A stretch of 64,000 nucleotides of DNA. Origin: an uncultured Acidobacteriota bacterium (GTDB lineage Bacteria > Acidobacteriota > Thermoanaerobaculia > Multivoradales > UBA5704). The stretch spans positions 736,001 to 800,000 of the forward strand of contig OY969474.1 of the NCBI GenBank assembly GCA_963700145.1. Reading direction: 5' to 3'. The notes beneath the pieces were generated by a model. That model was not told where the DNA came from, searched no databases, and saw only the letters and a list, made by a program, of their open reading frames with translations. A program made the translations under genes and the position numbers. Below, piece after piece: positions 55,740-64,000 of this stretch (positions are counted from its first letter, which is position 1; each line of letters starts with the position of its first letter).

Positions 55740-58163
55740 GTGAGGCTGCGGATCGATCGCTACATCGTCGCCGAGATTGCCGGTCCCCTGGCGCTCGGGT
55801 TCCTAGTCTACACGTTCATCCTGCTGCTCCGATTCCTCTTCACCTCGGCGGAGATGATCATCCGGCGGGGGCTGCCGGTGGCCACGGTCGGCCAGCTGCT
55901 GCTCACGACCCTGCCCAACATCGTCGTCCTGACGATCCCGATGTCGCTCCTCTTCGGCATCCTGATCGCCATCGGGCGGATGGCCTCCGACAGCGAGCTG
56001 ATCGCCCTGCGCTCCTGCGGCGTGAGCCTGCTCACCCTCTACCGGCCGGTGCTGGCGATCTCGGCGTTCTTCACCCTGGCCAACACGGCGCTGATGGTCT
56101 GGGCGCTCCCCTGGGGCAACTCGTCGCTGCAGCAGCTGCGGCTCGACATCCTCACCCAGACCGTCTCGCAGCAGGTGCAGCCGCGGGTCTTCTACGAGGA
56201 GTGGGACCCCTACGTGGTCTATGTCTTCGAGGTGCCGCCCGGGCAGAGCCGCTGGAAGGGCGTGTTCCTCGCCGAGTCGATCCCCTCGGCCGACGACAAC
56301 CAGATCACCACCGCCGAATGGGGCGAGGTGAAGGTCGAGGAGCAGGGCGAGCGGGTGGTGCTCCAGCTCTACAACGCCATCCGCCACAAGGTGGACCTGA
56401 GCTCTCCGGGCCGTTACGAGATCAGCCGCCACCGCCGTCTGGAGCTGGTGCTGGAGGACCAGTTCACCTCGACCCAGCGGGCCAAGGTCTCGGTCTCGAA
56501 GGGGGTGCGCGAGCTCACGCTAGCCGAGCTGCGCGACCTGCGCGACGACCCGGCGGCGTCCAGCGAGCAGCGCAACCTGGCGGAGGTCGAGATCCACAAG
56601 AAGTTCGCGATCCCGGTCGCTTGCCTGGTCTTCGGCCTCTTCGCCCTGCCGCTTGGCTTCAACAACCGGCGCGGCGGCAAGGCCTCCGGGTTCGCCCTCT
56701 CGATCGCCGTCATCGTCGTCTACTACGTCCTGCTAGCGAACGGCGAAGAGGCGGCGCGCTACGGCCGGCTCCCCGCCTGGGCGGGCATATGGGCGCCGAA
56801 CCTGATCCTGGCGGCGGCGGGGGTCTTCCTGCTGGCGCGGCGCAACCGCGACAAGGGGCTGCTGTTGAGCGGCATCGACCGCTGGCTGCGGCACAAGGTC
56901 TGGCCGGTGCTGCTGGCGGTGCCGCGACTCACCCGCCGCTGGCGGCGCCGCCGCGAGGAAGCCGGCCAGGGTCCGCCGGCGGCGCCCGCGCCGGCGACCG
57001 CTCGCGCCGCGCACCCACGGCGTGGCCGCCGAGCCGGGCTGGTCTTCCGCCTCCCCCGCCCGCGCATCACCTTCCCCAGCCTCCTCGACCGCTACGTGGC
57101 GCGGCAGTTCGCCGGAGTGTTCCTGCTCGTCGTCCTCTCGGGGGTGACTCTCTACGTCATCGCCGACCTCTCCGAGACAATCGACGAGATCCTCAAGAAC
57201 AAGGTGCCGCGCGACATGGTCTTCGACTACTACAAGTACATGTCGCTGCAGATCTTCTACGACATCGCGCCGATCGTGGTGCTGGTGACGACCCTGATCA
57301 CCTTCTCGCTGCTGTCGCGCACCAGCGAGGTCACCGCCTGCAAGGCGCTCGGCCTCTCGCTCTACCGGCTCTCGCTCCCCGCCCTCGCCTGGGCGGTCCT
57401 GATCGTCGTGCTCGCGGCCTTCCTGCAGTCCGAGGTCCTGCCCGCCTCGAACGAGCGGGTGGCGCAGCTCAAGGACCGCATCCGCGGCCGCGAGGCGGCG
57501 CGCACCTACCGCCGCGCCGATCGCCAGTGGCTCTTCGGCCAGGGCCGCTACATCTACAACTACATCCACTACGATCCGGCGCGGCAGGGCCTGCAGCGCC
57601 TGCAGGTCTTCGACTTCGACCCCGAGCACCAGCTCCGCCGGCGGTTGGTAACCGACCGCGCCACCTACGACCCGAACCGCGAGGCCTGGCTCTTCGAGAA
57701 CGGCTGGGCGCGCTCGTTCGCCGGCGTCGAGGTCACCGACTACGTCCGCTTCGAGGAGCCGCTAGTGGTCCGCTTCCCGGAGACCCCCGACTACTTCGAC
57801 TCCGAGATGCGCCCGCCGGAGCAGATGCGCTTCGGCGAGCTCAAGGACTACGTGCGGGAGCTCGAGGAGAGCGGCCAGCCGGTGCCGGAGCTGCTGGTCG
57901 AGCTGTACAACAAGATCGCCTATCCGGTGGTGTCGCTGGTGATGGCGCTGGTCGCGCTCCCGTTCGCCTTCCGCCTCGGGCGGCAGGGGGCGCTCTACGG
58001 GGTGGGGATCTCGATCGCCCTGGGGATGGCGTTCCTCGGCATCTACGCCTTCTTCACCACCCTCGGCGAGACCGGGGCGCTGCCGCCGGTGGCCGCGGTG
58101 TGGAGCCCGAGCGCCGTCTTCGCGATCCTGTCCGCCTACCTCTTCCTCGGGGTGAGGACCTAG
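55740..58163 (+). CDS. Fused LptF-LptG LPS export permease
   Basis: Two halves, each starting I/LDRY, with SDSELIAL and TSEVTACKALG motifs. Confidence 0.88.
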   Translation: MRLRIDRYIVAEIAGPLALGFLVYTFILLLRFLFTSAEMIIRRGLPVATVGQLLLTTLPNIVVLTIPMSLLFGILIAIGRMASDSELIALRSCGVSLLTLYRPVLAISAFFTLANTALMVWALPWGNSSLQQLRLDILTQTVSQQVQPRVFYEEWDPYVVYVFEVPPGQSRWKGVFLAESIPSADDNQITTAEWGEVKVEEQGERVVLQLYNAIRHKVDLSSPGRYEISRHRRLELVLEDQFTSTQRAKVSVSKGVRELTLAELRDLRDDPAASSEQRNLAEVEIHKKFAIPVACLVFGLFALPLGFNNRRGGKASGFALSIAVIVVYYVLLANGEEAARYGRLPAWAGIWAPNLILAAAGVFLLARRNRDKGLLLSGIDRWLRHKVWPVLLAVPRLTRRWRRRREEAGQGPPAAPAPATARAAHPRRGRRAGLVFRLPRPRITFPSLLDRYVARQFAGVFLLVVLSGVTLYVIADLSETIDEILKNKVPRDMVFDYYKYMSLQIFYDIAPIVVLVTTLITFSLLSRTSEVTACKALGLSLYRLSLPALAWAVLIVVLAAFLQSEVLPASNERVAQLKDRIRGREAARTYRRADRQWLFGQGRYIYNYIHYDPARQGLQRLQVFDFDPEHQLRRRLVTDRATYDPNREAWLFENGWARSFAGVEVTDYVRFEEPLVVRFPETPDYFDSEMRPPEQMRFGELKDYVRELEESGQPVPELLVELYNKIAYPVVSLVMALVALPFAFRLGRQGALYGVGISIALGMAFLGIYAFFTTLGETGALPPVAAVWSPSAVFAILSAYLFLGVRT

Positions 58164-59419
58164 AAGCGGGAGAGGTCCCGCCCGAAGAGCATCGCCTTCG
58201 CCCAGTCGAAGAGGACCTTCACCTTGTTGGCCGGCGATACCAGCTTCGTGAGATAGACCGAACGCCAGAAGAGCCAGGCGGCGCGGCCGCTCCACTTGAC
58301 GTGCGGCAGGTCGGCGAGCGCCTGGCCGGCGCCGATGTAGGCGAGCATGCCGGCCGAGCGGAAGCGGAACGGGCCGACGGGCCGGCCGCGGCGGCCGCGG
58401 TCCAACGCCTTCGCCAGGTACTCCCCCTGCTGCTGCGCCACCTGGGCGGTGGCTGGAAGCCCCAGCTCCCCCACCGCCGCGCAATCGCCCAGAGCGTAGA
58501 CCCCAGATCGTCCCGCTAGCCGCAGGTGGTCATCGACACGGATCCGTCCGCGTGGCGTCAGCGGCTCTCCGAGCGCGGCGACGAGCGGGACGGGGGCGTT
58601 CCCTCCCGCCCAGAGGACCAGGCCGGCGGGGAGGAAGCCGCCGTCGCGCAGCCGCACGCCGTCGCGCTCGACCGCCGACACCGCGGTGGCGAGGCGCACC
58701 TCGATCCCTTCGCGCTGGAAATGGCGGTGGGCGTAGGCGCCGAGCGCCGCGTCGAAGCCGCCCAGCATCCGCTCGGCCGCCTCGACCAGCACCACCCGCC
58801 CCCGCGGCGCCAGCTCGGGATAGCTCGCGGCCAGCTCGCCGGTGAGGAGGTCGTGCACCTCGGCCGCGACCTCCACGCCCGTCGCGCCGCCGCCGCAGAC
58901 GACGAAGGTCAACCGCCGCGCCACCTCCTCGTCGGAGAGCCCGGGCACCTCGGCGCGCGCGAACTGGTCGAGGATGCCGCGCCGCACCGCCCGCGCGTCC
59001 TCGACGCTCGCCAGGGTCAGCGCGTGCTCGCGCACGCCGGGAACGCCGTAGTCCGCCACCCCGGCACCCACGGCGATCGCCAGCAGGTCGAAGAGCAGGG
59101 CGAAGCGCTCCTCCCCCACCGCCGAGACGCACTCCACGCGACGCGCCTGCCAATCGACGCGCTCCGCCCGTCCCTCGATCAGCCGCACCTGCCGCAGGCG
59201 CCGGCGCACCGGCTCGAGAATGCTGCGCAACTCGACGGTGCCGGCGGCGGCCGAGGGGAGGAGAGGCGTGAAGAGGAAGTAGTTGCGCGGCGAGAGGAGC
59301 GTGACGTCGAAGCGGCCGCGCGGCAGGCGCCGCAGGAGGGAGAAGCCGGCGAAGCCCGAGCCGAGGACCAGGAGCTTCGGCGGCGCGGCGGCCGAGCTCT
59401 TGCCGCCGGCTGGATCGCT
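58160..59419 (-). CDS. ndh: Type II NADH dehydrogenase-like flavoprotein; no canonical start codon
   Basis: The frame is open upstream of 59230 and reads KLLVLGSGFAG..SPRNYFLFTPLL. Also VCGGGATGVE, ALGD, ATAQVAQQQG, FGRDLSRF. Confidence 0.85.
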   Translation of the reverse strand, partial: SDPAGGKSSAAAPPKLLVLGSGFAGFSLLRRLPRGRFDVTLLSPRNYFLFTPLLPSAAAGTVELRSILEPVRRRLRQVRLIEGRAERVDWQARRVECVSAVGEERFALLFDLLAIAVGAGVADYGVPGVREHALTLASVEDARAVRRGILDQFARAEVPGLSDEEVARRLTFVVCGGGATGVEVAAEVHDLLTGELAASYPELAPRGRVVLVEAAERMLGGFDAALGAYAHRHFQREGIEVRLATAVSAVERDGVRLRDGGFLPAGLVLWAGGNAPVPLVAALGEPLTPRGRIRVDDHLRLAGRSGVYALGDCAAVGELGLPATAQVAQQQGEYLAKALDRGRRGRPVGPFRFRSAGMLAYIGAGQALADLPHVKWSGRAAWLFWRSVYLTKLVSPANKVKVLFDWAKAMLFGRDLSRF

Positions 59420-60776
59420 AGGCGAAGCGCAGCTCCGGGTTGGCGCGCGCCCGGTTCAGGAAATCGGCGACGCTGCGCACCAGCTCCAGCCCCGCCTCCT
59501 CCATCTCCGCCGCCCGGCGGAAGACGATGAGCGCCGCCAGCGCCTCGCGGTGGATGCGGCGGGAGGTGAAGACGGGCAGCATCTCCTCGGCCAGGCGGCG
59601 GACCTGGGCGGCGCGCCCCTGCGCGGCGTAGAGGGCGGCGAGGTCCAGGCTCACGAGCGCTGCGTCGTAGTCGAGATGCTGCTCGAGGAACCCCTCGCGC
59701 GCCTCGCGATAGGCGGCCTCGGCTTGGTCCGCCCGTCCCAGCCCGTAAGCCACGGTCCCCTCCACCCAGCGCAGGCGGGTCAGCCAGACCCGGCCGCCGT
59801 GCTCGAGGTAGAGCGGCCGGGTGTGGAAGAGAAGGGCGAAGGCCTCGCGGTGCTGGCCGGTGTCGTTGAGACCGAGGATGAGGTTGTGGCGCACCGCGAG
59901 CGCCATCCGCGGGTCCTCGCGCGGGTCGAGGTGGTCGAGGGCGGCGCGCAGCAGCTCGATGGCGGTGGCGTTGTCGCCCGCCTCCCCGCAGACGCCGGCC
60001 TTCTGCGCCAGGCCGCGGCCGTAGAGGTGGCGCTGCCCGAGCTGGCGGTAGATCCCGATCACCCGGTCGAGAAGGCGCAGCGAGTCGTCGAACCGCCGCT
60101 GGTCCTTGCGCAGCGACGCCTTCCAGTCGAGCACGCGCGCGCGGTCCAGCAGGTCGCCGACCTCGCCGGTCACCAACAGCTCGGCCTGGCCGATCGCCAG
60201 CTCGGCCGCCTGCTGATTGCCGCGCACGCGGTGGGCGTTGCCGAGCGTCCCCCAACAGCGGGCGGAGAGACCGCGCAGCTCCTCGCCGTCGCCCGCCGCT
60301 TCCAGCCGCTCCACCACCTGCTGCGCCAGCTCGGCGAGCTCCACCGCCCGCTCCCCGTCCTGGAAGCAGGCCTCCTGGCTCTTGGCGAGGAGCAGCTCGC
60401 CGAGCGACCGGTTGGCGAAGCGCGTGCTGTTGCGCACCAGCATCTGCTGCCGGCTCGCCGGGTGCTGCTCCAGCTCGAGCCAGAGCTGCTCGGCGGCGGA
60501 CTGCTCGCGCTCGATCGCTCCGCGCCGGCGCTCGACGCTGCGGAAGGCGCCGTCGATGGCGCGGTCGTAGGCGGCCTCGAGCTCGGGAGACAGCGCGGCG
60601 AGCAGCGCCTCGTCCTCTTCGTCCGCGCCGGCGAAGGTGAAGATCCCCCCCGCCTCCTCCCGGCAGGCGGCGCAGCCGCTCAGCAGGTGGCGGAGCACCC
60701 GGCGCGATTCCGGCCCCGGGAGCTCGGCCCGCAGGAAACGCTCGAGCTGCTCGCGCGGCGGGTGCACGTCAGCCAT
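59418..60776 (-). CDS. Zinc-finger (HxxxCxxC-like) anti-sigma N-terminus plus TPR protein, copy 1
   Basis: HPPREQLERF...RHLLSGCAAC followed by about 350 aa of TPR-like helices. No TM segment. Overlaps the upstream ECF gene. Confidence 0.75.
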   Translation of the reverse strand: MADVHPPREQLERFLRAELPGPESRRVLRHLLSGCAACREEAGGIFTFAGADEEDEALLAALSPELEAAYDRAIDGAFRSVERRRGAIEREQSAAEQLWLELEQHPASRQQMLVRNSTRFANRSLGELLLAKSQEACFQDGERAVELAELAQQVVERLEAAGDGEELRGLSARCWGTLGNAHRVRGNQQAAELAIGQAELLVTGEVGDLLDRARVLDWKASLRKDQRRFDDSLRLLDRVIGIYRQLGQRHLYGRGLAQKAGVCGEAGDNATAIELLRAALDHLDPREDPRMALAVRHNLILGLNDTGQHREAFALLFHTRPLYLEHGGRVWLTRLRWVEGTVAYGLGRADQAEAAYREAREGFLEQHLDYDAALVSLDLAALYAAQGRAAQVRRLAEEMLPVFTSRRIHREALAALIVFRRAAEMEEAGLELVRSVADFLNRARANPELRFA

Positions 60777-61305
60777 GGCGACTCTCCTTTACGACACCTG
60801 CGGCGACGAGCTGGCGCATCAGGGCGGCCAGGCAGCGGTTGGTGATCTTGCCGATGCTGGAGGTGCGATAGCCGAGGCGTTGCGCCAGCTCCGGCGCTTC
60901 GTAGCCCTGCTGATAGCGGAGCTGCAGGAGATTGCGGCAGCGCTGCGGCAAGCGTTGGATCAGGTGCTCGATGTCGCGGCGCAGGTCGGCGTCCTCCTGG
61001 ACCAGCGCCTGCGGCCGGGCCAGCCACTCGAGCATGGCGTCGTCGACCGCGTCGTAGACCCGCCGGCGCCGGTCGCGCCAGTAGAGGAGGCACTTGTGGC
61101 GGAGCGTGCCGGCCAGCCAGGCGGCGGGATCGCGAACCTCCCCCGCGCGATGGACGAAGGCGAGCAGCGCCTGCTGCAGGAGGTCCTCGGCGTCCTCGGG
61201 GGGGATGCGGTAACGGAAGAAGACGCACTTGAGCCGCGGCCGCACCCGTTCCAGGAACAGCTCCCAGGAGGAGCCGTCTACGTGCGGTTGGTCTAGGACG
61301 CTCAT
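60769..61305 (-). CDS. ECF sigma factor, copy 1
   Basis: DAEDLLQ region 2, AWL, LPQRCRNLLQLRY..G...ELAQRLG region 4. Confidence 0.85.
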   Translation of the reverse strand: MSVLDQPHVDGSSWELFLERVRPRLKCVFFRYRIPPEDAEDLLQQALLAFVHRAGEVRDPAAWLAGTLRHKCLLYWRDRRRRVYDAVDDAMLEWLARPQALVQEDADLRRDIEHLIQRLPQRCRNLLQLRYQQGYEAPELAQRLGYRTSSIGKITNRCLAALMRQLVAAGVVKESRHG

Positions 61306-61422
61306 CGTGCCGCGCAGGGCTATAGGGTGTCTGCGAAGACACTACCACCCTGGCCGGACTCTTGTCCAGCCGCGCGGCTACCGGGCGGGAGGTTTAGCCG
61401 CTAGCCGTCGTCGGCCCCGGCG

Positions 61423-61641
61423 CTAGCGGCCGCCATTGCCGTCAATGCGGCTGCCGACCGCACTAACCACTTTCGTGAAGCGCGTCCAGATCTCCTGCAG
61501 GAGGCCGTGGGTGGCCACGAAGCGCCCCTGCACCGGGTCGCTGTCCCGCCACCGGGCCGCCTGCGCGGGTCCGGCGGCGAGCAGTGAGACGGCGGCGGTG
61601 AGGGCGAATGCGGCGAAGCCGCGGCGCAGTCTGCTCGTCAT
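61423..61641 (-). CDS. Small secreted peptide 1 (72 aa), C-terminal GSRIDGNGGR
   Basis: GAAGGAG RBS, basic N-terminus, hydrophobic core, AQA cleavage motif. Confidence 0.7.
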   Translation of the reverse strand: MTSRLRRGFAAFALTAAVSLLAAGPAQAARWRDSDPVQGRFVATHGLLQEIWTRFTKVVSAVGSRIDGNGGR

Positions 61642-61809
61642 GTCTCTTTCTCCTTCGTTTGCAAGCATTAACGTAAATCCGCCAGGGTTCGGCGGAAGTT
61701 CCCTCTCCCTCAACATGAGTTGCCGATGGTAGGGCTGCGGAGGACAAGGCCGCCCCCTTTTCTGCGGGCGGCGGCCTGGAAGAACGGCCGAAGGGCTGCC
61801 GGCGGGGGG

Positions 61810-63156
61810 CTAGCCGGCGTCGCGGAGCTTCAACCCCGCCTGCACGCGGGTGCGGCAGAGCAGGTCGCCTACCTCGCGCACCAGGCCGACGGTCACCCGC
61901 TCCCGCACCGCGGCGCGTTGCAGGACCGTGAGCGCGACGAGCGCCTCGCGCTGGACGTCGCGCGCCGCGAAGAGCGGCAGGATCTCCTCGGCCATGTGCC
62001 GGACCTCGCCGGTCCGCCCCTGCTTGAGGTAGACCTCGATGAGGTCGAGGGACACGAGGCCGACGTCGTATCCCAGGTCGCGGGCCAGCATCTGCTCCCG
62101 CACCGCCAGGAGCCCGGCCTCCGCCTCCTCCAGCCGGCCGGCGCCGCGGGCGAGCTTCGCCTCCAGCCAGCCGACGCGCAGCCGCCCGAGCCGGTCCTCG
62201 AAGCGGTCGTAGAGGGGCCGGGCGCTCTCGAAGGCGGCCGTGGCTTCCTCCAACCGCCCGCTCTCGACGAGGTAGTGGATCAGGTTGTGATGGCCGGCGA
62301 CCACCAGGCGGAACTCGGCCGCGGGATCGCTGAGCTCGAGGCCGCGACGCAGGGTCTCGATCGCCCCGGCGGCGTCCCCGGAGTGGCCGAGGAAGACCCC
62401 CTTGCCGATCAAGCCCTTGCCCGCGAGGTGCCGGTCGCCCGCCCGCCGCGCCAGGGCCACGCCGCGGTCGAGGAGGCGGAAAGCCTCGGCGAAACGACGC
62501 TGGTCGCCGAGCAGCGAGGCCTTCGACAGCAGCAGCGTCGCCTTCTCGAGCGGGTCGCCCGTGCCTTGGCGCAGCAGCCGCTCGGCGCGGAGGAAGGCCG
62601 CGGTGGCGTCGCGGAAGTGGGAGCGGATGCGGCGCGCCGTGCCGAGAGCGGTCCAGGCGCGCGCCATCAAGTCGTGTGTCCGCTCGGAGCCGTACGCGGC
62701 GGCGTCGAGCTTCGCGGTCGCCGTCACCGCCAGCTCGGCCAGCTCCACCGCGCGCCCCGCGTCGTGGAAGCCGGCTTCCTGGGCCGCTTCGATCAGCCGC
62801 GCGCAGAACGACCAGGTGCGGTAGCGGGCGCTCTGCCCCACCAGCATCCGCTGCCGCTCGAAGGGGTGAGTGGCGAGGCCGTCGAGCAACTCCCCCGCCG
62901 CCGCCTGCTCCTCGGCGATCTCGAGCTGGCGCGCCATGACCGCGCGCTCGGCGCGCACGAAGGCGTCGTCGTAGTCGGCCATCCGGGGGCGCCGGGCACC
63001 CGGCGCCGCGGCGGGCGGGAAGAGCGCCGCCGCCACCTCGGCACAGGCGGAGCAACCGCGCAGCAGGTGGCGGATGAGGGCGCGGACTTCCGATCGCGGC
63101 AGCTCGACACGCCCGAGCTGCAGCAGCGTCGCCCGCTCAGGATGGCTTCGACTCAT
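61810..63156 (-). CDS. Zinc-finger anti-sigma N-terminus plus TPR protein, copy 2
   Basis: HPERATL...RHLLRGCSAC. Paralogous to copy 1 (HP..RQ.MLV, HNLI, YD..LVSLDL, REAL.AL). Confidence 0.75.
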   Translation of the reverse strand: MSRSHPERATLLQLGRVELPRSEVRALIRHLLRGCSACAEVAAALFPPAAAPGARRPRMADYDDAFVRAERAVMARQLEIAEEQAAAGELLDGLATHPFERQRMLVGQSARYRTWSFCARLIEAAQEAGFHDAGRAVELAELAVTATAKLDAAAYGSERTHDLMARAWTALGTARRIRSHFRDATAAFLRAERLLRQGTGDPLEKATLLLSKASLLGDQRRFAEAFRLLDRGVALARRAGDRHLAGKGLIGKGVFLGHSGDAAGAIETLRRGLELSDPAAEFRLVVAGHHNLIHYLVESGRLEEATAAFESARPLYDRFEDRLGRLRVGWLEAKLARGAGRLEEAEAGLLAVREQMLARDLGYDVGLVSLDLIEVYLKQGRTGEVRHMAEEILPLFAARDVQREALVALTVLQRAAVRERVTVGLVREVGDLLCRTRVQAGLKLRDAG

Positions 63157-63682
63157 GCTCCGACTCCTTGTGGAAGCCCACCGCCAGCAGCTGGCGGGTG
63201 AGCGCCGCGAGACAGCGGTTGGTGACCTTGCGAATGCTCGACGAGCGGTAGCCCATCTGCTCCGCCACTTCGTTGGGGCCGTAGCCGAGGCCGTAGCGCA
63301 GGCGCAGCAGCGAGCGGCAGCGCGAGGAGAGGCGGCTCAGCACACGGTTGAGGTCGGAGCTCAGGTCCGCCCGCTCTTGCGGCGGCGCCTGCGGCGTCGA
63401 GATCAGCTCGAGGATCGCCGTGTCCACCGCGTCGCAGAGGCTGCCGCGGCGCTTGCGCCAATACATGATGCACTTCTTCTTGACCGTGCCGATCAGCCAG
63501 CTCTCGGGGCTGCGCACCGTGTCCCACTTGTAGATCAGGGTGAGCTGGGCGTCCTGGAGGATGTCCTCGGCGTCCTCCGGCGGCACCTCGAAGTGCCGGA
63601 GCACCCGCTCGAGTCGCGGCCGCGAGTCCGTCAGCAGCTTGTTGAGCGATTCCCGGAGTTCGGGTTGATCCAGCGTCGCCAT
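63137..63682 (-). CDS. ECF sigma factor, copy 2
   Basis: PPEDAEDILQ, SWLIGT..KCIMYWR, RCRSLLRLRY, GYRSSSIRKVTNRCLAAL. GAAGGGA RBS. Confidence 0.85.
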   Translation of the reverse strand: MATLDQPELRESLNKLLTDSRPRLERVLRHFEVPPEDAEDILQDAQLTLIYKWDTVRSPESWLIGTVKKKCIMYWRKRRGSLCDAVDTAILELISTPQAPPQERADLSSDLNRVLSRLSSRCRSLLRLRYGLGYGPNEVAEQMGYRSSSIRKVTNRCLAALTRQLLAVGFHKESEHESKPS

Positions 63683-63795
63683 GTCCCTTCGGTCCCCCCG
63701 GCCGGCTGGGGCTTGATAGGCTAGCACCCGCTTCGCTCCCTTGTCCAGTTGGACTCGTAGTTGCGCGACGGCCATGACGCGCCGCCACGCGCGAC

Positions 63796-63978
63796 CTACA
63801 GACAGCCGCCCCAGGGGTCGAGCGTGCAGCCGCTCGGCGGCGGCGGATCGAACTGCGACGCCGCCGTCGTGGACCGGGTCGGGCCGGAGCTGTCGCCGAC
63901 CGAGAGGAGCTCGAGCAGGGCGAGCAGCCAGGGGAGGAGGAACAGGGCGAGGGGCCGGCGGAAAGACCTCAGGGTCAT
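63796..63978 (-). CDS. Small secreted/membrane peptide 2 (about 60 aa), C-terminal GCTLDPWGGCL
   Basis: AGGAG RBS, basic N-terminus and Leu-rich hydrophobic core. The alternative start is 63984. Confidence 0.65.
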   Translation of the reverse strand: MTLRSFRRPLALFLLPWLLALLELLSVGDSSGPTRSTTAASQFDPPPPSGCTLDPWGGCL

Positions 63979-64000
63979 CACCATCTCCTAAAGAAGTCGA

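Follow-up and report, generated by a model that had tools for sequence, protein, structure and literature searches.

Paired exported-peptide, ECF sigma factor and zinc-domain TPR genes in a Thermoanaerobaculia genome: a candidate peptide-gated anti-sigma system

A three-gene unit occurs twice, in the same order, on the minus strand of a 64,000-nucleotide stretch of DNA from an uncultured soil Acidobacteriota bacterium of the class Thermoanaerobaculia (hereafter the window; positions 736,001 to 800,000 of contig OY969474.1, assembly GCA_963700145.1). Each unit consists of a small gene for a predicted exported peptide (pepA or pepB), a gene for a sigma factor of the extracytoplasmic function (ECF) type, and an overlapping gene for a soluble protein of about 450 amino acids (aa), in which an N-terminal segment resembling the zinc-binding anti-sigma (ZAS) domain is followed by tetratricopeptide repeats (TPR). 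We propose that each unit is a peptide-gated sigma/anti-sigma module, a reading to which we give about an even chance of being right. It draws on the recurrent pairing of peptide and TPR genes in the host genome and its relatives, on profile similarity of the TPR proteins to zinc anti-sigma factors, and on a complex model in which the peptide core lies in the TPR groove.

An earlier reading made from the letters of the window (the sequence-only reading) had pointed to this repeated arrangement, and all six open reading frames (ORFs) that it claimed are present in the ORF list of the window, on the minus strand between 59418 and 63984. In unit A, pepA (61423..61641) encodes 72 aa from an ATG behind a GAAGGAG ribosome-binding site (RBS), and the listed ORF extends to 61716. 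Its product has a signal peptide ending AQA (followed by A), a Trp-containing amphipathic helix and the C-terminal core GSRIDGNGGR. The intergenic region that follows (61306..61422, minus strand) contains predicted stable hairpins without a U-tract and no obvious RBS for ECF-A (60769..61305), an ECF-type sigma factor of 178 aa. TPR-A (59418..60776), a soluble ZAS-like/TPR protein of 452 aa, overlaps ECF-A by 8 nt; its residues 1-48 form the anti-sigma-like zinc domain and residues ~120-445 a TPR superhelix, the concave face of which is the predicted peptide groove. In unit B, pepB (63796..63984) is an ORF with an RBS that encodes 62 aa, or 60 aa from the ATG at the third codon, with a hydrophobic signal-like N-terminal segment and the Cys-bracketed C-terminal core C-TLDPWGG-C. 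ECF-B (63137..63682) encodes 181 aa from an ATG at 63682, which aligns with the start of ECF-A, the ORF being open to 63775. TPR-B (61810..63156) overlaps it by 20 nt and encodes a soluble protein of 448 aa with a ZAS-like zinc motif (H5, H30-x4-C35-x2-C38) and a TPR superhelix. TPR-A and TPR-B are 43% identical over 452 aa (E 7e-94) and the two ECFs 51% identical (E 5e-63), a resemblance by which the duplication of the unit is far beyond chance. pepA and pepB share a common architecture and a short [IL]-D-[GP]-x-G motif and have no overall sequence similarity.

On sequence evidence, the small ORFs are real conserved genes with signal peptides, the support for pepB being thinner and coming from three related genomes. 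Related loci were drawn from 263 relatives, one genome per species, and the best 80 loci (L013-L092) were taken. tblastn with pepA found homologues at the same position upstream of ECF-A in 29 loci (E<0.05). A hidden Markov model (HMM) built from 26 pepA homologues was run on 41,121 six-frame ORFs from the related loci and the host genome, a single contig of 5.46 Mb that contains the window. It recovered 70 ORFs at E<1e-3, the level at which peptide genes were called in related loci, with pepA at E 6.7e-24. Family members have a basic n-region, usually Arg-Arg (R6 and R7 are at least 90% conserved in the alignment), a hydrophobic core and an AxA-like end, then a Trp-rich amphipathic helix and the core G-x-[RM]-[ILMV]-D-[GPD]-[NDE]-G. 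The earlier suggestion of small ORFs with an RBS and a signal-peptide-like N-terminus is thus borne out by this 70-member family and by the RBS of pepA. Pfam and NCBIfam searches assigned neither small ORF to a family. An ESM Atlas search with pepA gave a lead only, to a 72-aa "hypothetical protein" cluster from Acidobacteriota (score 0.89, below 0.9).

The core occurs once in 41 of these ORFs, twice in 15, three times in nine and four times in one, and is repeated in 25 of the 70; one "double" is an artefact of the regular expression, and four ORFs have variant cores such as INPDG. L070 contains KLGVRIDDNG three times and L092 four MDP[DN]G cores. In 49 of the 66 motif-bearing ORFs, the last core ends 0-2 residues before the stop codon. 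Repeated cores are a hallmark of precursors that are cut into short peptides, which suggests that these precursors are processed. Cores bracketed by Cys residues are found in pepB, in four other host ORFs (1851417, 3384211, 3886370 and 4412603), in L015 and in L089. One peptide, that of L091, has both an IDPNG and an IDPWGG core and so links the pepA and pepB types. Counterparts of pepB stand upstream of ECF-B in L014, at 93.5% aa identity, and in L064, at 55%, and L015 has an analogous ORF with a Cys-bracketed core; as far as these loci indicate, pepB-type peptides are confined to the closest relatives.

Peptide genes and TPR genes are paired throughout the host genome, in which a search with TPR-A finds 16 paralogues at E<=2.7e-13. 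All six frames of the 5.46 Mb were scanned blindly with a regular expression that required Met, then a basic residue and a hydrophobic stretch no shorter than 11 residues, with the motif at most 25 aa from the C-terminus. Nine ORFs were returned, each of them followed 33-647 nt downstream by a TPR paralogue in the same orientation. Adding pepB and an HMM hit at 1858079-1858501, 11 of the 16 paralogues have a peptide gene. Two peptide channels had been expected; instead, the host genome holds at least 11 predicted peptide-TPR modules, most of them without an ECF gene and two with an adjacent, co-oriented one.

In the relatives, linkage was counted only for ECF/TPR pairs with at least 350 nt of upstream flank. 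Among 57 such ECF-A/TPR-A pairs, 46 have a peptide gene at E<1e-3, four have weak hits and seven have none; in six of these seven, at most 104 nt separate ECF-A from the preceding ECF gene. Stand-alone TPR genes with flank have a peptide gene directly upstream in 14 of 15 cases. As the peptide gene stands upstream even of TPR genes that lack an ECF, it is linked to the TPR protein and not only to the ECF. The co-occurrence of peptide ORFs that the sequence-only reading proposed therefore holds in these two groups and fails in most ECF-B/TPR-B pairs (see below). The gene order in related loci is ECF-B, TPR-B, often a third ECF, pepA, ECF-A, TPR-A and often a third TPR gene (e.g., 5086-6447 of L023). 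The third ECF gene, between TPR-B and pepA, is found in most relatives (loci L016-L074; e.g., 2311-2859 of L023) and, like the third TPR gene, comes without a dedicated peptide gene. The window and its closest relatives (L013, L014, L015, L064 and L019) lack both the third ECF and the third TPR gene. A second class of loci (L075-L092 except L078 and L085) contains stand-alone TPR genes, about 40% identical to TPR-A, and no ECF gene.

Searches of public protein collections gave at least 1394 members of the TPR-A family at E<=1e-5 among the 8000 candidates that were scored. The only names they bear are "tetratricopeptide repeat protein", "hypothetical protein" and "MalT-like region", and those with a stated source come from metagenome-assembled genomes of Thermoanaerobaculia or Acidobacteriota. 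Of 301 evenly sampled genomes of the phylum, five have a TPR-A match at E<=1e-25, and all five belong to the window's own order. Genes for a protein with a PilZ domain, for N-acetylmuramoyl-L-alanine amidase and for a protein resembling MreB are found downstream of the stand-alone host paralogue at 1856739 (1853095-1856699, minus strand); this module has no neighbours in common with the stand-alone loci L075-L092. A link to a peptide importer was considered and rejected: one of the three host genes for Opp/Dpp-type binding proteins (SBP_bac_5) lies ~2 kb from a peptide/TPR pair, with an aminotransferase gene and a 330-aa ORF (no Pfam match) between them, and what follows the TPR gene of that pair are genes for PilZ, amidase and MreB-like proteins.

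TPR-A and TPR-B match only TPR_12 in Pfam. They have no signal peptide and no hydrophobic stretch of transmembrane grade (maximum KD19, 1.04 and 1.15), so that the soluble TPR proteins of about 450 aa overlapping the ECF genes were correctly foreseen. An HxxxCxxC zinc-binding domain had also been read at their N-termini. The relation to zinc anti-sigma domains was retained, whereas the spacing was not: the ligands are H5 and H30-x4-C35-x2-C38, and the canonical ZAS motif, H-x3-C-x2-C, which neither TPR-A nor TPR-B has, is one residue shorter. The four ligands are invariant in 25 of 25 family N-termini and kept in 14 of the 16 host paralogues; the nine canonical ZAS proteins of the host genome have H-x3-C-x2-C. 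When the profile of the 25 family N-termini was aligned by hhalign with a profile of nine host zf-HC2 anti-sigma factors, each of which adjoins an ECF, a probability of 90.7% was obtained (E 1.3e-6, 47 columns), with a one-residue gap needed between the His and the first Cys. A sequence search of the PDB returned the N-terminal domain of DdvA as the sole anti-sigma entry (E 0.56, residues 9-49). A structural model of residues 1-110 (pLDDT 83) had no Foldseek match at E<=0.001; of its best 10 rows, seven are anti-sigma domains, namely RslA (five rows), RsiW and ChrR, followed by DdvA and MucA, all non-significant at E>=1.4. The ChrR row aligns 50 columns at a root mean square deviation of 2.9 A and 30% identity. 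We conclude from the profile comparison that the TPR N-terminus is probably a zinc anti-sigma domain that has diverged. That the TPR protein binds its ECF is a prediction from this ZAS-like N-terminus and from translational coupling.

Two further searches with the N-terminus added little. A wide VIA-align search with the model was uninformative, its list being filled by coiled coils that match the long helix at 50-110, and ESM Atlas gave a lead only (score 0.82, below 0.9), to a cluster with zf-HC2 on 13% of its members. A divergent TPR paralogue (334900-336267, minus strand), which adjoins the 336859 module, has the canonical H-x3-C-x2-C (HLLA-CSRC), lacks the N-terminal HP and has no detected peptide gene. 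It may be an intermediate between canonical ZAS proteins and the TPR family.

The AlphaFold model of TPR-A (pLDDT 85.9, pTM 0.72) is all-helical, with three short N-terminal helices, a linker, a long helix and the TPR superhelix. Its top Foldseek matches are the LGN/Pins TPR domains around extended peptides (E 4e-7), and the Rap receptors RapJ (4gyo, E 1.8e-5), RapF (3ulq), RapH (3q15) and Rap of pLS20 (6t46) were also matched. The modelled superhelix is of the peptide-binding type of TPR; since the best fold matches are eukaryotic LGN/Pins and not Rap, the fold falls short of establishing homology to RRNPP receptors. The RRNPP-like logic put forward by the sequence-only reading survives in part. 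TPR-A has the properties of a cytoplasmic receptor whose peptide-binding domain is of the TPR type (it lacks a signal peptide and transmembrane segments, matches TPR_12 and has the fold matches just given), and beside it lies a small ORF for a putative exported pro-peptide, whose export is predicted from signal-peptide features. What did not stand is kinship, as the TPR proteins have no Pfam or NCBIfam match to the Rap, NprR, PlcR, PrgX or AimR families. The only other family named for the TPR protein is NsdA_fam_reg, which it matches weakly (E 4.6e-4; 19.8 bits, cut-off 75).

When TPR-A was modelled with residues 29-72 of pepA, the median ipSAE was 0.69 (runs of 0.61, 0.69 and 0.69), and the best of three controls reached 0.00. 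Of 157 solved complexes, 116 reach this mark, and of 215 mismatched pairs, 2 do so; these counts apply only roughly here because custom alignments were used. At least 65% of the contacts agreed among runs, with a partner pLDDT of at least 49. The model, which bears out the expected fit of the peptide tail to the TPR protein, puts the pepA core in the TPR groove and supports, without showing, binding. Confident pepA contacts are W52, F55, T56, V59 and residues 63-72 (GSRIDGNGGR), all on the concave TPR face. The tightest modelled pairs join pepA D67-G70 to TPR-A residues 134-138, 180-184, 217-224, 254-261 and 294-297. On the TPR side, the contacts F138, N180, R183, S221, R254, Q258, H297, N298 and R334 are invariant or near-invariant in the family. 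Among 14 paralogues, too few for this purpose, covariation between interface residues and core variants gave no clean pattern.

ECF-A and ECF-B score 67.8 and 62.9 bits against TIGR02937 (ECF superfamily, cut-off 42.9) and contain sigma-70 regions 2 and 4 in Pfam (Sigma70_r2, E 8.7e-9 and 2.3e-10; r4/r4_2). By these profile matches they are ECF (group 4) sigma-70 factors, in agreement with the sequence-only reading. The host genome contains 44 ECF-type matches, of which only ECF-A and ECF-B directly precede a TPR paralogue. None of the other host paralogues lies directly downstream of an ECF, and one has a divergently oriented ECF gene. A third related ECF (2755411-2755860) is divergent from the TPR paralogue at 2753416-2754783, and a fourth (4071173-4071631) stands alone. 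A TPR gene follows its ECF directly in units A and B and in 102 ECF-linked TPR genes of the related loci. The ECF stop is overlapped by the TPR start in the window, as described above, and by 4-8 nt in the related loci inspected.

A bipartite promoter-like motif, TGTCC-N16-CGGCAAC, lies at 61719..61746 on the minus strand, ~80-105 nt upstream of the pepA start. In the form TGTCY-N15/16-GCGGNAAC(T), often preceded by a T-rich tract, it occurs once on the coding strand in 63 of the 80 loci, one of these hits (L081) being inside a gene and probably due to chance; the opposite strand has one hit in 613,634 nt. In ECF-linked loci it stands ~80-110 nt upstream of pepA, and the six loci in which pepA would not fit lack it. 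Eight stand-alone loci have the motif downstream of the peptide gene and ahead of the TPR gene. A variant, TGTCC-N16-CAGCACT, goes with pepB; it keeps the upstream half of the motif and falls immediately beyond the window. With a position weight matrix (PWM), the pepA site is the top hit in the whole host genome (26.6), followed by 1137958(-), 3033527(+) and 1127071(-). The strict motif has no exact hit near the stand-alone host paralogues; related variants, unscored, were seen by eye between their peptide and TPR genes. The motif is probably the promoter of an autoregulated operon and of stand-alone receptor genes, read by the ECFs of this family.

Two of the other PWM hits precede genes for predicted secreted proteins. 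At 3033527-3033900 on the plus strand (L095), the motif (PWM 20.2) stands before a Cys-rich ORF of ~71 aa with C-GDDPW-LTC, a pepB-like core, and no TPR paralogue is nearby. This ORF, which has two overlapping frames and an ambiguous start codon, may be a further member of the peptide family or a regulon member. At 1123330-1127071 on the minus strand (4331-7972 of L094), the motif (PWM 19.1) precedes the gene of a secreted protein of 1213 aa that matches PKD weakly; a gene farther downstream on that strand (380-3460 of L094) encodes a 1026-aa protein with FN3 and matrixin-like (Peptidase_M10) domains. Both genes are possible ECF targets.

The transcript around pepA may also be structured. The region 61290-61470 folds with a minimum free energy of -91 kcal/mol (z -2.58), and 3 of 200 shuffles fold equally well. 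The leader from the motif to the pepA start (61642-61718) contains hairpins, the sequence of which varies between lineages (CCGCC...GGCGG in the host), and a block GCCTATGGCTATTCGGCCACA is common to a subset of the L036-L056 leaders. This 5' segment may be a conserved leader structure; Rfam has no match at E<=1 in 59000-64000.

Under the mechanism that we propose, the 450-aa protein would act as a cytoplasmic anti-sigma factor and, through its zinc domain (H5, H30, C35 and C38), keep hold of the ECF translated with it. The product of the small gene immediately upstream would be exported via its signal peptide and probably cut to one or several cores. A core would then return to the cytoplasm, as in the RRNPP systems of Firmicutes; this route of export and re-import is the least certain step. 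The TPR groove would bind the C-terminal core (G-x-R-I-D-G-N-G in pepA, C-TLDPWGG-C in pepB), and its occupancy would alter the hold of the anti-sigma factor on the sigma factor. Conservation of the motif suggests that the pepA-ECF-A-TPR-A operon is probably read by the ECF itself, which would create a feedback loop. Most host pairs have no dedicated ECF, so that three or four related ECFs may be the common target of several peptide inputs.

A number of observations weigh against this proposal. Binding, export, processing, re-import and expression of the module parts are all predictions, and we know of no precedent in Acidobacteriota for re-import across two membranes. The host has three SBP_bac_5 genes, none of them in a module. 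Brackets of two Cys residues suggest that a disulfide loop forms, and has its target, outside the cytoplasm. Across orthologues the core is near-identical, unlike fast-diverging pherotypes. In the complex model, the fold of pepA is uncertain because its pLDDT is about 50, and interface positions are at least 90% conserved in 15 of 36 cases as against 83 of 290 in the rest of the TPR region, a difference that is not significant (permutation p 0.13). The ligand spacing at the TPR N-terminus is non-canonical, Pfam zf-HC2 aligns with it at E 1.5, below threshold, and a zf-HC2 scan of the host genome gave 10 hits with no TPR paralogue among them. The pairing is incomplete as well. No peptide gene was detected for five of the 16 host paralogues (3645703, 4274978, 3108750, 1473612, which is truncated, and 334996), and the 29 "third" TPR genes of related loci, 10-244 nt past TPR-A, are accompanied neither by a peptide gene nor by a dedicated ECF. 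Nine of the 12 ECF-B/TPR-B pairs with flank lack a peptide gene, the exceptions being L015 (by HMM) and L014 and L064 (by tblastn with pepB).

The main rival explanation requires no re-import. The TPR groove would bind the precursor core before export, so that slow export would let precursor build up and free the ECF; the small protein would be a sentinel substrate and not a cell-cell signal. Receptor and precursor share a compartment only before export, no module contains an importer gene, the n-region has a near-invariant Arg-Arg, and the pro-region with its Trp-rich helix is conserved throughout, unusually for RRNPP pro-peptides. The complex model fits this secretion monitor equally well, and its helix contacts W52, F55 and V59 would be present only in the uncut precursor. 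However, the 2-4 tandem cores of 25 of the 70 precursors are easier to understand if several short peptides are released, cores between Cys residues speak for a form oxidised outside the cytoplasm, and a set of 11 or more paralogous sentinels in a genome would be superfluous for one export pathway. A processed extracellular form is favoured by the repeated cores and the Cys pairs, binding before export by the importer-less modules and the conserved pro-region. We judge a secretion monitor unlikely. Alternatively, the peptide could be an output, an exported effector (e.g., membrane-active or disulfide-looped) that is co-regulated with the ECF, with the TPR protein sensing another protein or a metabolite. 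pepA is the first gene behind the motif, so that its induction with the ECF would be expected, and the same type of motif precedes other secreted-protein genes (the Cys-rich ORF at ~3033620 and the PKD-like 1213-aa protein). Trp-rich amphipathic helices and some Cys pairs would also suit an effector. Yet in the eight stand-alone loci the peptide gene is not behind the motif, the modules contain no immunity, modification or dedicated export genes, and the complex model passed its controls (0.69 against 0.00). The strict match of one peptide gene to one TPR paralogue (nine out of nine in the blind scan) and conservation of the core, not of a folded domain, argue for a ligand-receptor relation, and we regard the output explanation as quite unlikely.

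The small protein could also be a leader peptide that monitors Sec export by translational arrest, a logic for which SecM, VemP and MifM are the named models. Its C-terminus would stall the ribosome, and mRNA structure would control downstream translation. A signal peptide with a conserved motif beside the stop codon in 49 of 66 ORFs, a position directly upstream of the regulated genes, the stable hairpins of the pepA-ECF-A spacer (z -2.58) and an ECF-A without a clear RBS are all in keeping with this. We still consider it very improbable: core repeats lie internally, far from the stop; spacers range from 33 to 647 nt and contain a separate promoter-like motif in stand-alone loci; the structure signal is modest (3 of 200 shuffles) and without an Rfam match; and the constant TPR-family partner is left unexplained. 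Finally, in DNA of 70% G+C the small ORFs might have arisen by chance, which would reduce the finding to a duplicated ECF/anti-sigma pair. There are 53 ORFs of at least 40 aa in 9 kb, and pepA and pepB cannot be aligned. Conservation of the protein in dozens of genomes, a correctly spaced RBS, the 9/9 genomic association with TPR paralogues and core repeats at the protein level refute this for pepA, and we give it next to no credence. The peptide-gated module remains our preferred reading.

A precedent of a kind for a peptide acting on transcription inside a diderm cell is PatS/HetR of heterocystous cyanobacteria, where a cytoplasmic regulator of transcription is acted on by a short peptide motif at the C-terminus of what a small gene encodes. 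The proteins are unrelated to those described here, and that system has no such signal peptide, no sigma/anti-sigma pair and no TPR receptor. Closer in layout are the RRNPP systems (Rap-Phr, NprR-NprX, PlcR-PapR and AimR-AimP), in which a small gene for an exported pro-peptide lies beside the gene for a cytoplasmic TPR receptor, as outlined in the available text of PMC10075063. Also alike are the conserved, presumed-active part at the C-terminus of the pro-peptide, the many paralogous pairs per genome, and the position of the peptide in the concave TPR groove (modelled here), with Rap structures among the fold matches. RRNPP systems differ in that they belong to Firmicutes and not to diderm Acidobacteriota, and that their output is a helix-turn-helix or response-regulator-binding bundle instead of a zinc anti-sigma-like domain. 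Conversely, the precursors described here have a conserved Trp-rich helix, often 2-4 cores and sometimes a Cys pair. According to the same part of PMC10075063, the RRNPP_detector paper, peptide quorum sensing by cytoplasmic receptors is a trait of Firmicutes and their mobile elements, and that part of the text does not mention Acidobacteri* or sigma.

The soluble ZAS/ECF pairs ChrR-sigmaE (2q1z), RslA-SigL (3hug) and RsiW-SigW (5wuq) resemble the units in having an ECF followed by an overlapping gene with His...His-x(n)-Cys-x2-Cys, and the TPR proteins are like them in solubility, three short helices and profile homology to zf-HC2. The units depart from them in the H-x4-C-x2-C spacing, in a 330-residue TPR superhelix as sensor in place of a cupin or of nothing, in the cognate exported-peptide gene within the unit, and in that most family members lack an adjacent ECF. 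The pairing of an ECF with a soluble ZAS protein is, as such, already catalogued as ECF270. In the portion consulted of Casas-Pastor et al. 2021 (PMC7826278), this is a group with a soluble ZAS in position +1, with no context conservation beyond the ZAS and with promoter motifs that are not conserved. Compared with the units by this description only, "soluble ZAS in +1" fits; it speaks of no TPR and no peptide, and Acidobacteria do not figure among the representative taxa. The review PMC8999054, in the part available, places ECF270 under "unknown mechanism", with a protein of "Acidobacteria bacterium SCN 69-37" as example. The same part of this 2022 review, which deals with non-canonical ECFs, describes ECFs with soluble anti-sigma factors as acting via conformational change (mostly in oxidative stress), partner switching, mechanosensing and "unknown mechanism".

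Two known systems combine TPR with sigma-factor control. DdvA-DdvS of Myxococcus xanthus (8rlz), as far as it is described in the accessible part of PMC11506125, has a ZAS-type N-terminus and TPR repeats in the anti-sigma factor. Unlike the units, DdvA is transmembrane, with its TPR-CHAT part outside the cytoplasm, and has no paired peptide gene in that description; the similarity scores are non-significant. ECF42, in the excerpts of PMC8999054 and PMC7826278, likewise uses TPR repeats as regulatory input to an ECF. There the sigma factor itself carries the TPR, with no anti-sigma factor present; in the units the TPR belongs to a separate protein, where it is fused to an anti-sigma-like domain.

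The sequence-only reading had not recognised the units as a described system, which holds for the combination and not for the ECF/soluble-ZAS pairing. A literature search that left out bioRxiv supplements and subscription journals found no published account of peptide, zinc-TPR protein and ECF together, nor papers joining Thermoanaerobaculia with sigma factor or Acidobacteri with RRNPP. For anti-sigma factor taken together with peptide pheromone, quorum sensing and ECF, only papers that are unrelated by title and abstract were found; for ECF270, the partial texts searched turned up only the review PMC8999054. It is possible, if on balance doubtful, that the modules are the first case of RRNPP-like signalling through a cytoplasmic peptide receptor outside Firmicutes and of an anti-sigma factor gated by a genetically encoded exported peptide, with a multi-channel code of at least 11 pairs per genome. 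If so, precursors with up to four [ILMV]-D-P-N-G-type cores, some of them closed by a disulfide, would serve paralogous zinc anti-sigma receptors that are expressed from ECF-type promoters and compete for three or four related ECFs, and population- or kin-level peptide signals would be integrated at RNA polymerase. Bacteria transduce signals to a large extent through ECF sigma factors, and an anti-sigma factor with a genetically encoded peptide as its ligand would add a new class of input. An analogous system in Acidobacteriota, which are abundant in soil and poorly represented in culture, would alter the view of such peptide sensing as a trait of Firmicutes and open a way into the study of cell-cell signalling in soil, and the module parts could become orthogonal peptide-inducible switches.

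Contigs from two soil RNA-library runs of one study (X19 and X20) contain pieces from a close relative, ~95% identical over ECF-A, TPR-A, TPR-B, ECF-B and 63702-63936 (pepB), with no cover over 61505-61838 (pepA and its upstream region). Since the runs were kept as contigs, which cannot show transcription, strand or absence, neither cover nor gap is used as evidence.

The cluster appears to occupy a conserved chromosomal site, as a gene for a 271-aa protein recurs divergently upstream of it in several loci and a type II NADH dehydrogenase (NDH-2) gene recurs downstream. In the window, the NDH-2 gene (Pyr_redox_2 and NDH2_C; 58160-59230, minus strand) begins 187 nt past TPR-A on the same strand, and it is the next gene after the cluster, again on the same strand, in 28 related loci. 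Its position reflects either conserved synteny or membership of the transcription unit. Beyond it, an 807-aa ORF on the plus strand (55740-58163) with two LptF_LptG matches (E 1.9e-162) appears to encode a fused LptF-LptG lipopolysaccharide export permease.

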